32,000 nucleotides of DNA, taken from the NCBI GenBank assembly GCA_043808785.1, contig JAZDEL010000002.1:150001-182000 (forward strand). Direction: 5' to 3'. The DNA is from Candidatus Iainarchaeum sp. (GTDB lineage: Archaea; Iainarchaeota; Iainarchaeia; Iainarchaeales; JAZDEL01). The translations under genes were made by a program, and so were the position numbers. The notes beneath the pieces are model-generated. The model ran no database searches and was not told the DNA's origin. It saw only the letters and a list, made by a program, of their open reading frames with translations. Positions 5,593 through 18,943 of the stretch are shown here, piece after piece (position 1 is the first letter of the stretch; every line of letters begins with the position of its first letter).

Positions 5593-5663
5593 AGCTGGGC
5601 AAGGGAGTCGAACCCTTCTCTCCCGGTCTGCAGCCGGGTGCATAGCCACTCTGCCAGCCCAGC
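5593..5663 (-). tRNA. tRNA-Cys (anticodon GCA), no encoded CCA, no intron
   Basis: The rc reads GCTGGGC-TG-GCAG..TGC-A-CCCGG-CTGCAGA-CCGGG-AGAG-AAGGG-TTCGACT-CCCTT-GCCCAGC-T. It has a 7-bp acceptor stem, a 5-bp anticodon stem with loop CU-GCA-GA, a T-loop TTCGACT and discriminator U as expected for Cys. Confidence 0.9.
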
Positions 5664-5685
5664 ACGCGGTTGCGCCCGCGTGTGA

Positions 5686-5720
5686 CGCGTGCTGCCTGCG
5701 GCAGCACTAGCCTGCACGCC
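5686..5720 (-). repeat. Copy A of a GC-rich hairpin element, in the tRNA-Cys 5' leader
   Basis: The stem is gtgctgcc (5689-5696), the loop tgc, and the return arm ggcagcac (5700-5707). 5686-5697 is identical to 18159-18170, and 5699-5720 is identical to 18223-18244. Confidence 0.85.
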
Positions 5721-5780
5721 CTAATTCCCGAAACCGCGCCGCTGATATACTATTTAACGCTTTGCATTTAAAGGTTTGTT

Positions 5781-16402: not shown

Positions 16403-18310
16403 CTACGCCTTTCCCTTCCCCGCTTTTGCCCCTTCCTTCGCTGCAGCATCCTTCGCCTTCTTTGCCGCGACATCCGCAGCATCCTGCTTCCTCTTCAGGT
16501 TCTTCTTTGTAGCCTTCTCCGTCTCGTCCACTTCCTCCTTCAGTTCCGCAGCCTCCTGCGCATCCTCCAATTTCAATTTCTCCAGCACCAAATCCTCAAG
16601 GTTCTTCTTGAGCGCCTTTTCGGAAGCCTTTGTAACCGCGCTCAGCGCCATCACAACCTCGGGTATGTACTTGTAAAACATCTCCCTTTTCTGCTGTTTC
16701 TGCTTGTCCCTGATTTTGTGCACTATGTATTTTCCCGTGTGCCTGCCCCCCTCCATCAGCGCAAGCCGCAGTTCCTCAAGAACCTCGGGTTCCTCCGCAA
16801 TCGCCTGCTTCCCCGCGCCTGTGTACGGGACGTGCACCGAGATGAAATTAACAAACACGCTTATGGGCGCGTTCTCCATATCTTTTATTCCATAGCGCTT
16901 CCAGTCCACGCTGTTCACGGCCTTTGTTATCGCGCACCCCCCGCCGTCAAACAGCAGCGGCGCGCGGTTTGCGAACCTCATTACCTCGATCTTCCTTTCC
17001 TGCGCCCCGTCCTCGTTTGTCCCCATAACCCTGCCCGCGTCTCCCCCGTAAGCAAGCGCAACCTCTATCTGGAAAGGGAACCCGCCCGAATATACCTGCG
17101 GCTTTCTCGTGATAACCGACATGAATTCGGGCTTCACAATCCCTTCCAAACTTTTCCTTATGCGCTCCTCCCCTATAGGCCTCAATCCATCCGTGCGCGG
17201 CGCGATGAAATCAATCTTCTTGAACGCGTTTATAATCTCCAGCGCCTCGTCCCACGTAACCTGTTTCGGGTCCTTGTTCATATCGAACGAAACCTTTGCC
17301 TGCATGTCCGAAACAGCCTTGTCCCCCATCCTGTCGAACTCCGCCTTAAGGAAGGATGAAACTTTCCTTGCGTCCGTGGTTTTGCTGTAGGTCATTATTT
17401 CATCTACAGTAATTCCCTTGGGGTGCGGCTTCATCTCCAGCGGCTTCTCGGGGATGTATTTCATAGTGCGCTCGAAAATCGTCGTCTCGTTCGCGGGATC
17501 GGTAAACCTTATCTTTGCGTGCGGGTTCGCAATCGCAGTCCTGCGCAAATACTCCAGCGGAGCCTGGTCGCTGTTTATGTATTTCACCCCGCGGAACCTT
17601 GCCTTTACCGCGGTTCCCTTGAATTCGCTCTTAAGTTCCTGCAGGTTTGTGACCTTAGCCTCGTTCTTTTTCGTGTCGATTGTGACCTCAAGGCTTATCG
17701 GGTGCCCCTTGCCGCTGCCGGTTATGATTTTCGTCGGCTGGCCCGTCGTCATCTGCGCAAGCATTGTGCATCCCGCACACCCGATGCCCTGCTGGCCGCG
17801 CATCTGCATCATCCTGTGGAACTTCGTTCCCGCGAGCAGCTGCCCGAACGCCTTTCCCACGGTTTCCTTTGTAAGCCCCGGCCCGTTGTCCTTTACCGTG
17901 ACCTCGTAATACTCGTTCCCGAGTTCCTCTATTTTTATGTCTATATCCGGAAGGATGCGCGCCTCCTCGCACGCGTCAAGCGAATTGCTGACATACTCGT
18001 GTATAATGGTTGTAAGCGTCCTTATCTTGCCCACAAGGCCGAGCATCTGCTTGTTCTTCTTGAAGAATTCCGCAACGCTGTGCTCCTTGAACTCCTTTGC
18101 AAGGTCCTCGGCGCTCACGGTGCGCGAGGTTTCCTGGCCCGCTTGCGATCGGGCATGCCGCGTGCTGCCTCGCGATTCTGCCCTCGGCAGAATGCGCGCA
18201 TTCGGCTCAAGCCGAATAGCGTCGGCAGCACTAGCCTGCACGCCGCCTTTGCCCTCTTCCGCAGCCTTTGCTGCGGCTTTCTCAGAACCCTTTCCCTTAT
18301 CCGAACCCAT
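16403..18310 (-). CDS. top6B: DNA topoisomerase VI subunit B (GHKL ATPase), start uncertain, with K/A/E-rich tails
   Basis: SVAEFFKKNKQMLG...IIHEYVSNSLDA...VKDNGPGL...GQQGIG are Bergerat-fold motifs. Candidate starts are GTG 18415, ATG 18310 (with an AT-rich box ~25 nt upstream) and GTG 18118, which would give (M)SAEDLAKEFKEHSVAEFF, the canonical length. Confidence 0.85.
   Translation of the reverse strand: MGSDKGKGSEKAAAKAAEEGKGGVQASAADAIRLEPNARILPRAESRGSTRHARSQAGQETSRTVSAEDLAKEFKEHSVAEFFKKNKQMLGLVGKIRTLTTIIHEYVSNSLDACEEARILPDIDIKIEELGNEYYEVTVKDNGPGLTKETVGKAFGQLLAGTKFHRMMQMRGQQGIGCAGCTMLAQMTTGQPTKIITGSGKGHPISLEVTIDTKKNEAKVTNLQELKSEFKGTAVKARFRGVKYINSDQAPLEYLRRTAIANPHAKIRFTDPANETTIFERTMKYIPEKPLEMKPHPKGITVDEIMTYSKTTDARKVSSFLKAEFDRMGDKAVSDMQAKVSFDMNKDPKQVTWDEALEIINAFKKIDFIAPRTDGLRPIGEERIRKSLEGIVKPEFMSVITRKPQVYSGGFPFQIEVALAYGGDAGRVMGTNEDGAQERKIEVMRFANRAPLLFDGGGCAITKAVNSVDWKRYGIKDMENAPISVFVNFISVHVPYTGAGKQAIAEEPEVLEELRLALMEGGRHTGKYIVHKIRDKQKQQKREMFYKYIPEVVMALSAVTKASEKALKKNLEDLVLEKLKLEDAQEAAELKEEVDETEKATKKNLKRKQDAADVAAKKAKDAAAKEGAKAGKGKA
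18159..18244 (-). repeat. Copy B of the GC-rich hairpin element, carrying a 52-nt insert that forms two further hairpins
   Basis: The outer stem pairs 18162-18169 with 18224-18231. The inner hairpins are attctgcc-ctc-ggcagaat (18175-18193) and attcggc-tcaa-gccgaat (18200-18217), separated by gcgcgc. The flanks are identical to 5686-5697 and 5699-5720. Confidence 0.85.
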
Positions 18311-18415
18311 CAAAACACCGTTTGAAATTGTTATTTTTTGTTTTCCCCTGCCCGTCCGCAATTTTCTTTCCCCGCCTTTTCCCTGCGCCCCGACTTTCCC
18401 TTTCCCCCCGCGCAC

Positions 18416-18943
18416 TCACAGCTCGAACTTTTCCCTTCCCGATTTCTTCAGTTCCCTTTCTACAGTATTGTGCGCCGCGCCGCCGAGCAGCATCTCGACT
18501 GCACGCTTCGCCTTTGAAACATCGTCATATTTCCCTATTACCGAAATTGTTTTCCCGTAAACCGAAACATAACATCCTGTTTCGTCCTCGATTTTTTCCC
18601 TTGTTCTCCCCTCACTTCCTATCACGCGGCCGCGCTTCTGTTCCGCGGCGTTTGAGGATTTTCCCGCATACTGCCCTATATCGATTACCTCAAGGCTGTA
18701 ACCCTCCTGCAGCAGGGCAAGCGCGTGCTCGGGTGAAAAGCCGCGGGCAATCGCCCTCACAATCTCCAATGCCTTGTAGCCCTTGAGCGCATCCCCCCTT
18801 TCTTCAATGCTCACTTCCCCGCTCCTGCTGTCGAGGGTTATCCTGGTGTTTGTTTCCTTCTCTATTTCCTTCTTTGTCCTGCCTGCGGAGCCTATAATCA
18901 CGGCAACGCGGTCAAGAGGCACCCTGATATATTCCACAGCCAT
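18416..18943 (-). CDS. Two-KH-domain RNA-binding protein (archaeal Dim2/Pno1-like)
   Basis: VAVIIGSAGRTKKEIEKETNTRI and RVIGSEGRTREKIEDETG are GxxG KH motifs. The SD-like GGTGA lies ~4 nt before the ATG. The gene is downstream of the RIO kinase gene, a common archaeal arrangement. Confidence 0.8.
   Translation of the reverse strand: MAVEYIRVPLDRVAVIIGSAGRTKKEIEKETNTRITLDSRSGEVSIEERGDALKGYKALEIVRAIARGFSPEHALALLQEGYSLEVIDIGQYAGKSSNAAEQKRGRVIGSEGRTREKIEDETGCYVSVYGKTISVIGKYDDVSKAKRAVEMLLGGAAHNTVERELKKSGREKFEL

Follow-up and report, generated by a model that had tools for sequence, protein, structure and literature searches.

The feature in the 5' part of top6B in this Candidatus Iainarchaeum genome is a V1 cassette plus a D double hairpin, that is, two repeat families nested one in the other. 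The composite is probably, in our judgement with moderate confidence, mobile or selfish DNA of this Iainarchaeota (DPANN) lineage, a two-module hairpin cassette of the kind of the Rickettsia palindromic elements (RPEs) and REP sequences that was inserted in frame in top6B. Among the readings offered by the original prediction, that of a REP/MITE-like palindromic family is the best supported, by multi-copy modules, by sites filled here and empty in relatives, and by nesting of D across the genome. The concern that no further copies might exist is removed, both modules being multi-copy, and chance or a sporadic duplication is ruled out by copy number together with covariation. No description of such a modular hairpin-element family was found in the literature searched.

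Two related cassettes and the nested insert

Two exact copies of the 22-mer CGGCAGCACTAGCCTGCACGCC lie in the window (the whole 32,000-nt stretch analysed), at 5699-5720 in copy A and at 18223-18244 in copy B, with no other site in the 1.42-Mb genome, and the repeat was matched in 0 of 100 dinucleotide shuffles, even at 2 mismatches. The 12-mer shared by 5686-5697 and 18159-18170 is also exact, and both repeats stand as first described.

Copy A is a V1 leader cassette on the minus strand (5664-5724; match to the V covariance model, R1, over 5665-5724, 50.2 bits, E = 5e-14) that precedes the tRNA-Cys(GCA) gene (5593-5663, minus strand; ARAGORN; Rfam RF00005, 56.8 bits). It comprises the 5' motif GGCGTGCAGGCTA (5708-5720), the hairpin alpha, GTGCTGCC-GCA-GGCAGCAC (5689-5707), and a 3' 'delta' hairpin, ACGCGG-GCGCAA-CCGCGT (5664-5681), which abuts the tRNA +1, all on the minus strand. 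The 5' end of tRNA-Cys is, as had been stated, 22 nt from the repeat block, and it is 25 nt from the foot of the hairpin. About 29 nt separate the end of the TATA-like TTAAATAG from the 5' motif downstream of it, and copy A fills the interval between this box and the tRNA-Cys +1, the place of a tRNA 5' leader, where it is presumably transcribed. An Rfam search of the window gave tRNA as the sole match.

In copy B (18137-18244, minus strand; defined by sequence and module comparison), the 5' motif occupies 18232-18244, the two arms of alpha 18224-18231 and 18162-18169, and the linker GCGGCAT 18155-18161, followed by a 3' 'gamma' hairpin, GCCCG-ATCGCAAG-CGGGC (18137-18154), again on the minus strand. 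Its 8-bp alpha stem encloses 54 nt versus 3 nt in copy A, which bears out the predicted net gain of 51 nt with the frame of the long top6B ORF kept. The enclosed sequence is a D unit of the GCGCGC-linker subtype (18170-18223), a 54-nt double hairpin in place of alpha's GCA loop, matched on both strands by the D covariance model, R2 (18167-18225; E = 8e-12 and 1e-10). Its order is ACGCT, ATTCGGC-TTGA-GCCGAAT, GCGCGC, ATTCTGCC-GAG-GGCAGAAT and CGCGA; the two inner hairpins, the GCGCGC between them and the 14-nt palindrome GAATGCGCGCATTC (18190-18203) had thus been read correctly. Both of the further stems that had been placed beside copy B are real. That at 18137-18154 belongs to the element, as a hairpin module with loop GATCGCAAG and 6 genome copies, whereas that at 18259-18276 (CCGCAGC-AAAG-GCTGCGG, minus strand, in a K/A/E-rich coding stretch) lies outside both families, is unique genome-wide save for one 2-mismatch match at chance level, and may have originated by chance.

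The model R1 misses the top6B copy because of the D insert and the differing 3' module, and we assign this copy to V from the exact 22-mer, the common alpha stem and the R1 matches to its sister V1 copies (tRNA-Cys, L32e, ndk). Aligned with the L24e-ndk spacer copy, it shows 93% identity over 109 nt. Of 112 positions compared between the top6B and ndk composites, 10 differ, and the four differences that fall in stems (4/4) make up two compensatory pairs. Compensatory changes in V affect 7 of the 8 alpha pairs and both beta helices, with a covariation score of 0.50-0.58 versus 0.17-0.21 in shuffles (reached by 0/500), and the signal collapses once pairing partners are slid. The basal pairs of D, which played no part in sequence selection, covary as well. 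Fold energies (-61.3 kcal/mol, z = -2.66, for the top6B composite; -30.2 kcal/mol, z = -1.47, for copy A) are weak evidence by themselves, and it is copy number and covariation that carry the case.

The two overlapping beta helices of V would suit either a pseudoknot or a switch. A P1 helix of the 5' motif and the beta region is predicted by RNAfold, but its register varies between copies and it was left out of the model. The GAGC...GCGAA apex has the tandem G.A motif of a K-turn, but the 3-nt bulge is missing on sequence inspection.

Start codon and coding state of the insert

The most probable coding range of top6B is 16403-18310 on the minus strand (635 aa; Pfam Topo-VIb_trans, 3e-52, and HATPase_c). 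The reading frame is open from 18415, with in-frame candidate starts at GTG 18415, ATG 18310-18308 and GTG 18118-16. The TATA-like AAAAAATAA (18331-18339, minus strand) lies at -29 to -21 relative to ATG 18310, and TATA-like hexamers show a roughly tenfold peak genome-wide at -27 to -25 upstream of ATG starts. Leaderless mRNAs are therefore probably usual in this genome, and ATG 18310, judged by the position of its TATA-like box, is probably leaderless too. The cassette begins 66 nt downstream of this ATG, and a short K/E-rich N-terminal peptide is common in top6B orthologues. TATA geometry and orthologue N-termini together place the cassette inside the coding region, and the insert is thus probably coding and not 5'-UTR, specifying residues ~23-58 (GVQASAADAIRLEPNARILPRAESRGSTRHARSQAG). 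A true start at GTG 18118 would shorten the protein to 571 aa and make the element 5'-UTR; no Shine-Dalgarno sequence or promoter was seen there.

The peptides predicted for the cassette-encoded stretch are GGVQASAADAIR, LEPNAR and ILPR, and the tryptic peptides predicted from the insert are AAEEGKGGVQASAADAIR, LEPNAR and AESR-GSTR.

The structured 5'-UTR, or regulatory or processing signal dedicated to top6BA, that the original prediction had also proposed finds no support in these data. Besides the promoter geometry and the orthologue N-termini, the cassette is absent at 81/81 other top6B loci examined, sister species among them, neither V nor D was found within 1.2 kb of top6B in any of 80 other Iainarchaeia, and the same cassette occurs in the unrelated uS3, L32e and L24e-ndk. 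A conserved protein motif (VQASAA.../EPNARILP) was rejected in turn, because compensatory stem changes alter its residues (GST to SGT) and copies also lie in a tRNA leader, tRNA introns and spacers.

Stop-free in-frame insertions, presumably translated, are found here in the unrelated top6B, uS3, L32e and ORF C2:47608-48153, in the last of which no start codon follows the nested D units. The sister species adds at least 7 further in-frame V cases: at least 7 of its 15 V copies away from tRNA genes are in frame in K/E/A-rich protein tails, and six of these seven use the same frame though all three frames are open. The alpha-loop lengths of 3, 54, 57 and 108 nt are all multiples of 3. Translation would predict inserts of such lengths, frames free of stops and repeated use of one frame, whereas splicing needs none of them, and this tells against a very improbable alternative, that of a protein-coding mini-intron which the archaeal tRNA-splicing endonuclease, together with the ligase, excises from the top6B mRNA and the other mRNAs, in which case the frame of the cassette would not matter for the protein. 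V cassettes do form the intron bodies of a tRNA-Cys (C4:123735-123890) and a tRNA-Tyr of this genome, which favours excision, and so does the broad substrate specificity of DPANN splicing endonucleases, as far as the account in PMC3239211 goes. However, a bulge-helix-bulge scan, which is weak and recovers 1 of 4 annotated tRNA introns, found nothing convincing around V, D or V+D in top6B, and the sole candidate that keeps the frame, which would excise 288 nt (18407 to 18119), falls on a GCGC palindrome with wobble flanks.

Distribution, nesting and proposed movement of the modules

V is a [C/T]TAG-tagged cassette with two covarying hairpins, in which an invariant AG stands directly 5' of alpha in 13/13 aligned V copies, mostly within [C/T]TAG. 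Its 5' motif GTGCAGGCTAG is found unaltered at 9 places in the genome, and R1 gives 12 matches here and 39 in the sister species; in the phylum sample searched with R1, V-positive genomes number 20 of 121, from 11 of 53 genera. The suspected link to tRNA precursors is real and broader than supposed, the outer element belonging to a covarying tRNA 5'-leader family that also forms tRNA introns. V abuts the +1 of 5 tRNA genes here and of about 10 in the sister species, and a TATA-like box lies ~25-33 nt upstream of its motif at tRNA genes, as would suit the 5' end of a primary transcript. These contexts lend some weight to the possibility, which we consider unlikely but not negligible, that V acts as a functional RNA, whether or not it carries D, namely as a structured 5' leader or a processing or stability signal on pre-tRNAs, co-opted at operon junctions (KH-top6B, uS3-L29, L24e-ndk) for cleavage or end protection. 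The covariation of all V helices, with the two beta helices that fit a pseudoknot or switch, is in keeping with such a role, as are the sense orientation of every V copy with a clear host transcript and the distance of at most ~200 nt to a gene junction in three of the four gene-associated V1 copies. On the other hand, V is patchily distributed among genomes and, within a genome, at only some tRNA genes, the orthologous tRNA-Cys leader of the sister species carries a V of another subtype, and the orthologous top6B, ndk and uS3 sites of relatives are empty. The same cassette also sits deep in protein tails and in tRNA introns, and RNase P RNA is present in the genome (107.7 bits), so that a special tRNA leader is not required. 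A conserved promoter or transcription-factor site was rejected, since the 12-mer GTGCAGGCTAGT is missing from 40 relatives and the stems covary without their sequence being kept.

Outside the tRNA-Cys leader and the top6B N-terminus, V1 copies lie in the uS3 C-terminal tail, the L32e N-terminal extension and the L24e-ndk spacer. The six V1 copies combine alpha variant, presence of D and 3' module (gamma or delta) in several ways, a mosaic that implies repeated insertion, loss or recombination. Filled and empty sites were compared with one congeneric genome (84% complete) and more distant relatives. In the sister species the L24e-ndk site is empty (stop codon, 5 nt, ATG), the uS3 tail is without a V element, and the species-specific 297-nt segment from the KH-protein stop to the conserved Top6B core (18119-18415, minus strand) has no counterpart, with ~70 nt there versus ~300 nt here. 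The ndk insert is bordered by the 16-nt direct repeat CAAGGGGAAAAAGAGG, itself K/G-coding sequence; flanking duplication is clear at this insertion only, other copies being without a direct repeat.

The consensus layout of D is GCGCT-H1-GCGCSC-H2-AGSGCG, with a bulged T or A beside the GCGC/GGGC foot and two hairpins of different stem sequence (ATTCGGC versus ATTCTGCC or ATTTTGCC). R2 has 72 matches in this genome counting both strands, at ~38 mostly intergenic loci, and 44 in the sister species, and 5 further genomes out of 41 are positive; perfect un-nested D dimers number 26 in this genome. D always sits where the apical loop of another hairpin was, and in all composites whole units are nested in apical loops, be it of V alpha, of a 20-bp 'ccaggcttttggaag' hairpin family or of D itself.

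This precise placement in apical loops at ~38 D loci is hard to reconcile with the least probable of the explanations weighed here, that nothing is mobile and that the shared 22-mer was left behind when similar purine-rich K/E/G-coding tracts underwent ectopic gene conversion or segmental duplication, the hairpins being incidental. All four gene-associated V1 copies lie in K/G/E/A-rich, purine-rich sequence that could have supplied homology, co-copying of flanking coding sequence would keep the frame automatically, and the coding nature of the ndk repeat agrees with this. Yet the copies in the tRNA-Cys leader and the tRNA introns are without such flanks, the stems covary over many copies and across genera, and the genome has 1024 perfect hairpins versus 332 in shuffled controls, i.e. 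three times more.

Under the mobile-cassette reading that we favour, the usual home of V would be the transcribed leader directly before tRNA genes, with tRNA intron bodies as a further site, and V1 would have spread by copying, from the tRNA-Cys leader or alongside it, into the K/E-rich low-complexity tails of highly expressed housekeeping genes, its recipients being the top6B and L32e N-termini, the uS3 C-terminus and the L24e-ndk junction. D, a double hairpin in its own right, would spread by taking the place of apical loops in hairpins already present, and the V1+D composite would have entered top6B in frame, behind a probably leaderless AUG. The insert is most likely translated, giving ~36 extra residues in a disordered N-terminal extension, like the RPEs, rather than acting as a top6B-specific regulator. 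Copying could take place at the DNA level, by targeting of extruded or single-stranded hairpin loops or by recombination between similar tails. In this genome (92.9% complete) no Y1/RAYT gene (PF01797) was matched and no reverse transcriptase (PF00078) was found, and RAYT/IS200-605 mobilisation and retro-copying were rejected on these grounds. No transposase or other mobilising gene linked to the cassettes was found either, and no terminal inverted repeats, fixed-length target duplication or related full-length insertion sequence (IS) were seen.

A wider conjecture, to which we give only a slender chance, is that V and D form one class of RNA-structured mobile modules, any of which can make up the leader of a tRNA, the body of a tRNA intron or an in-frame stretch of protein, so that tRNA introns, structured leaders and low-complexity extensions of DPANN archaea would share one origin and move in a transcription- or RNA-linked manner without a classical transposase. 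RNA-linked movement would explain the strict sense orientation, the preference for highly expressed genes and the loop-targeted nesting.

If the favoured reading is true, tiny self-folding cassettes are tolerated and propagated by a reduced archaeal genome even within its most essential genes, those for tRNAs, ribosomal proteins and a topoisomerase, and a single type of cassette makes up a tRNA leader, a tRNA intron and a translated stretch of protein. This would bear on the origin of archaeal tRNA introns, on the growth of K/E-rich extensions of DPANN housekeeping proteins and on transposase-free repeat movement. For annotation, start-codon calls and 'N-terminal extensions' in such genomes can hold repeat-derived sequence.

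Comparison with known repeats and mobile elements

The RPEs (Ogata et al. 2000) are, as far as the summaries in PMC10969869 and PMC3733652 describe them, palindromic repeats of ~100-150 bp. The cassettes described here resemble them in being short and palindromic at ~100-150 bp, in lying in frame and stop-free in unrelated housekeeping genes to which they would add a peptide segment, in occurring also in intergenic and RNA-gene contexts, and in having no associated transposase. Unlike the RPEs, V and D are found in an archaeon, have unrelated sequences and consist of smaller interchangeable modules that nest by apical-loop replacement; they concentrate in low-complexity K/E-rich tails, not in folded domains, and the V cassette doubles as tRNA leader and tRNA intron body. 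Membership of the RPE family is not claimed.

REP, BIME and REPIN elements, with RAYT transposases, include GTAG- and CGTC-tagged REPs (PMC3733652). Both REPs and the present modules are GC-rich hairpins of 20-40 nt, and the short conserved unpaired tag by the stem may be a further likeness, although the [C/T]TAG of V differs from the GTAG or CGTC of REPs. Both often form inverted pairs or clusters, belong to species-specific families of tens of copies, and have occasional intragenic copies, those of REPs notably in replication and repair genes. In contrast to REP systems, this genome is missing a Y1/RAYT gene; the sister species has one IS605-type Y1 gene, flanked by unrelated CCCCGCGG hairpins. 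The two hairpins of D are not mutually complementary, so D is not a REPIN, and loop nesting and locations in tRNA leaders and tRNA introns are not REP features.

Insertion aimed at the apical loop of a palindromic repeat is shared with elements of the IS1397/ISKpn1 type. These are full insertion sequences with a transposase that target REP loops, whereas D, a pair of hairpins 54-57 nt long, has no capacity to encode a protein. The absence of visible terminal inverted repeats, fixed-length target duplication and a parental IS sets V and D apart from MITEs.

Archaeal tRNA introns and split-tRNA leaders have been proposed to transpose, including intron transposition in Thermoproteales (reviews PMC4090602, PMC3293823). 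Transposing tRNA introns are defined by a bulge-helix-bulge and confined to tRNA genes, whereas V is seen in spacers and in the tails of protein genes as well, and the scan that recovers 1 of 4 annotated tRNA introns detected no bulge-helix-bulge at its borders. What the two have in common is the reappearance of related short structured sequences in leaders and at several intron positions, and this recurrence in and around tRNA genes suggests that the cassettes have moved among tRNA loci.

Two copies in the window and the V1 subfamily

The window corresponds to G000:C2:150001-182000, and genes neighbouring top6B assign its genome to the Candidatus Iainarchaeum lineage (Iainarchaeota/Diapherotrites, DPANN). 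In this genome (G000; 1.42 Mb, 10 contigs, 52-53% G+C) the 22-mer at window positions 5699-5720 and 18223-18244 is identical in both places and has just these two occurrences, and 0 of 100 shuffled controls contained a match with two mismatches allowed. The 12-mer common to the two copies is exact as well, and the folds given in the original prediction were reproduced: copy A (5664-5724, ahead of tRNA-Cys) forms the hairpin GTGCTGCC-GCA-GGCAGCAC, and in copy B (18137-18244, in top6B) this stem encloses 54 nt, a net gain of 51, with two hairpins, GCGCGC between them and a 14-nt palindrome at 18190-18203. Taken alone, the folding energies of the composite and of copy A (z = -2.66 and -1.47) are unimpressive against the GC-rich context. 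The feature is real, and the modular family to which it belongs is apparently undescribed.

The outer part of both copies is a [C/T]TAG-tagged two-hairpin cassette (V), which in copy B encloses an inner double hairpin (D). Both copies belong to V1, a subfamily of six members with the alpha stem GTGCYGCY, whose host genes were confirmed by Pfam. The stem is GTGCTGCC in the tRNA-Cys leader (3-nt loop, no D, 3' module delta), in top6B (54-nt loop with D, gamma), in the C-terminal tail of uS3 (108-nt loop with D and a second D nested inside it, delta) and at C10:15250-15350 (57-nt loop with a variant D unit, gamma), and GTGCCGCT in the L24e-ndk spacer (54-nt loop with D, gamma) and the N-terminal extension of L32e (3-nt loop, no D, delta). 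Gamma is a hairpin with the loop GATCGCAAG, present in six copies in the genome with covarying stems, and delta reads GGGCGCAA(A/C)CGCG. Alpha variant, presence of D and 3' module are combined in several ways among the six, a mosaic that could only have come about if insertion, loss or recombination between copies happened repeatedly. Identity between the top6B and ndk composites is 93%, with 10 differences in 112 nt; four fall in stems, and all four form two compensatory pairs.

The V1+D copy on contig C10 (G000:C10:15200-15430) lies between copies of a 23-nt repeat, GAAACAATTAAAATAG(A/G)T(A/G)GCGC, of which there are three, with spacers of 33 and ~121 nt; the repeat contains a TATA-like box ~20 nt 5' of the V motif. 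These repeats might be promoters in tandem or a degenerate array of CRISPR-like type, and V1 may be expressed as a stand-alone RNA.

Modular, covarying hairpin cassettes

The V motif GTGCAGGCTAG has nine exact copies. It stands 55-70 nt 5' of five tRNA genes (Cys, Met, Tyr, Asp and Leu-GAG), four times exactly and before tRNA-Met with one mismatch, and these leader copies end at tRNA +1; a sixth tRNA-associated copy is found 3' of tRNA-Ile. The congeneric sister-species genome (G001; 84% complete) has the V architecture before ~10 of 36 detected tRNA genes. Behind the tag follow hairpin alpha (apex GAGC-N-GCGAA) and a beta region (CGGATC...GGATCC-TTCCG). An alignment of 13 leader copies shows compensatory changes in 7 of 8 alpha pairs and in both of two overlapping beta helices, with a covariation score of 0.50-0.58 vs. 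0.17-0.21 for shuffled alignments, which was reached by 0 of 500 shuffles and was lost once pairing partners were slid. The covarying beta pairs would fit either an H-type pseudoknot or a switch between two states. A covariance model of V (R1) detects 12 copies in G000 and 39 in G001, and across a sample of the phylum (E <= 1e-4) 20 of 121 genomes, from 11 of 53 genera, contain a match, with 33 copies in one genome.

Two R1 matches in G000 lie in tRNA introns. A second tRNA-Cys gene (C4:123735-123890) has an intron of 82 nt that is essentially one V cassette, folded into a rod in which extra 5' sequence pairs with its 3' arm, and the 218-nt intron of tRNA-Tyr (C4:152107-152397) contains V with the gamma hairpin also seen in the top6B copy. 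That V can be a tRNA intron body suggests that mRNAs might lose the cassette by splicing, but a scan of low sensitivity, which recovered 1 of 4 known introns, found no bulge-helix-bulge motif bracketing it. At G000:C1:150994-151150, tRNA-Ile(GAT) is followed by V, behind which the 3' end of the tRNA recurs as an imperfect 20-nt copy (TTAAATCTCATCCCCCCCAC), as though V had come in along with a replacement for the end of the gene.

Used as a query, the D core retrieved 13 near-identical copies. A census of perfect hairpins counted 1024 in G000 vs. 332 in shuffled controls, the most frequent arms being ATTTTGCC, ATTCGGC, ATTTTGGC, AATTGGC and ATTCGGGC. The D-type hairpins are arranged as dimers with a spacing of exactly 6 nt (26 perfect un-nested dimers in G000), laid out as GCGCT-H1-GCGCCC-H2-AGGGCG or, in the top6B subtype, as ACGCT-H1-GCGCGC-H2-AGCGA. 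Their upper stems vary in sequence among copies with complementarity kept. The feet are rich in GC and contain one bulged T or A each; they also pair and covary, having played no part in picking the sequences. A covariance model of D (R2) has 72 matches in G000 when both strands are counted (~38 loci, including window 18167-18225), 44 in G001 and, among 41 relatives, matches in five genomes beyond G001. In all composites the inner unit takes the place of a host hairpin's apical loop; hosts are V alpha, the 'ccaggcttttggaag...' hairpins (a family with 20-bp stems adjoining tRNA genes) and D itself.

Where the long hairpins are 'empty', their apex is GAGY-N-GCGAA, as in V alpha. In the 3' flank of tRNA-Arg(TCT), G000 has a D unit in the apex of a 20-bp hairpin (C9:34258-34400), and the orthologous flank in G001 (L039) consists of one AT-rich hairpin, a tail of purines and one GC hairpin.

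Copy B in the top6B reading frame

From 18415 as far as the Top6B core, the top6B frame stays open, and it offers three in-frame starts. ATG 18310 has AAAAAATAA at -29 to -21; neither a TATA-like nor a Shine-Dalgarno signal was seen in front of GTG 18118. In a genome-wide survey of 546 ATG-started ORFs of >=150 aa, TATA-like hexamers show a sharp, ~tenfold peak at -27 to -25, and a second, G-rich peak of Shine-Dalgarno type, lying at -12 to -8, marks operon-internal genes, two separate peaks which imply that the genome mixes leaderless first genes with Shine-Dalgarno-led internal ones. With a TATA-like box before ATG 18310 and the frame open, the element probably lies within the coding region, and the proposal of a structured 5'-UTR finds no support.

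Top6B orthologues often have a short K/E-rich peptide ahead of AEELAKEFKEHSVAEFF, and the distance from the first ATG to SVAEFF has a median of 28 and a maximum of 78 codons, vs. ~81 from ATG 18310. Given the open frame, the promoter signal at ATG 18310 and these K/E-rich N-termini, the most economical reading would be that V1+D was inserted in frame into a pre-existing K/G/E/A-rich N-terminal extension. Many Iainarchaeia Top6B proteins (loci L093, L118, L126, L157 and others) carry a K/E-rich low-complexity N-terminal extension of 20-60 residues, in keeping with a separate initial observation of K/E/G/A tails in housekeeping proteins.

The alpha-loop lengths of 3, 54, 57 and 108 nt are each a multiple of three, and the uS3 and L32e copies are in frame without stops. 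Of the 15 V copies that G001 has outside tRNA surroundings, at least 7 are in frame in K/E/A-rich tails or extensions, in hosts that are L32e-, S15- and PyrI-like by sequence and in three C-terminal tails; 6 of the 7 share one frame (peptide SAAEPxGEAHGSRADPSA), all three V frames being open. Loop lengths, stop-free copies and the recurrent frame would agree with translation of the insert.

The ORF at G000:C2:47608-48153 encodes a 181-aa protein with no Pfam match, in which two nested D units lie in frame between the sole available start codon and a conserved core (GGALIAVLGVGKGSWGH...); no start codon occurs 3' of the units, which would likewise agree with translation.

Filled and empty sites, and the nature of the cassettes

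From the stop of the KH-protein gene to the conserved Top6B core (SADELSKEFKVHSVAEFF) there are ~70 nt in G001 vs. ~300 nt in G000, and the G001 gap contains no V- or D-like sequence. At the ndk site, G001 has the L24e stop, 5 nt and the ndk ATG, and G000 has the composite between two copies of the 16-nt direct repeat CAAGGGGAAAAAGAGG. The K/E/A-rich uS3 tail of G001 is without the element, the tRNA-Arg(TCT) 3' flank differs in its cassettes between the two species, and at tRNA-Cys promoter and tRNA are kept with a leader cassette of a different subtype. The 12-mer GTGCAGGCTAGT was absent from 40 relatives; judged from such comparisons, V is species-specific in sequence and not in architecture. 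A signal shared by a tRNA precursor and the top6BA mRNA had been envisaged: the tRNA side stands, V abutting five tRNA genes, whereas a top6B-specific signal is not supported, R1 and R2 giving 0 matches in top6B loci of Iainarchaeia elsewhere (80 loci, each taken with 1.2 kb of flank).

V and D are modular, covarying, multi-copy hairpin cassettes with apical-loop replacement and turnover between close relatives. They are strictly sense relative to host transcripts and prefer tRNA flanks and introns and the low-complexity tails of highly expressed genes. The main alternative, a functional RNA acting as leader, processing or stability element, draws on covariation, sense orientation and placement after TATA boxes, but sits poorly with the patchy spread, the replacement of the subtype at one site and the empty orthologous sites. 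The feature is most likely a form of palindromic mobile repeat and not a top6B-specific regulator; among the options first raised, a REP/MITE-like family is favoured by multiple copies and empty sites in relatives. The cassettes would be selfish or neutral repeats of the REP/RPE kind, persisting where a stable hairpin and ~20-60 added residues are tolerated. No mobilising enzyme was found: G000 has no Y1/RAYT and no reverse transcriptase gene, and G001 has one IS605-type gene with unrelated hairpins. At the DNA level, the cassettes might move through nicks or switches of template where hairpin loops are extruded, or else through ectopic conversion between similar tails.

The nearest functional analogue is provided by the Rickettsia palindromic elements, which lie in frame in housekeeping genes (PMC10969869; PMC3733652); intragenic REPs have also been noted in replication and repair genes (PMC3733652). 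V and D cluster as REP/REPIN-RAYT systems do and resemble them in having a hairpin with a tag, which in V is an invariant AG, usually within [C/T]TAG, and not GTAG or CGTC; they lack the defining transposase and the self-pairing doublet, and they do not qualify as MITEs. tRNA-intron transposition offers a precedent for the movement of related sequences from one tRNA position to another (PMC4090602, PMC3293823), but not into protein genes. A general survey covers REP-like palindromes in archaea, the terms 'nested', 'RAYT' and 'DPANN' being absent from its text (PMC12306157), and literature searches on palindromic or hairpin repeats of DPANN or Iainarchaeota returned nothing specific.

The sister-species top6B (G001:C17:3665-5253, L008/L010) has a ~1.6-kb insertion after HEYTTNS in the ATPase domain, which looks like an intein because it continues in frame (VTWDTPTVIRTNDGVRIARIGEVVD...); the top6B of the window has none. 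The species-specific segment of 297 nt in the window is flanked by the inverted repeat GTGCGCG / CGCGCAC (18409-18415 and 18121-18127) and bracketed by the direct repeat GTGAG (18116-18120 and 18414-18418), which may be the borders of the whole insertion, though short enough for chance. With the segment removed, the stop codon of the KH gene would share the tetranucleotide GTGA with the GTG start of top6B, as is typical of coupled junctions.
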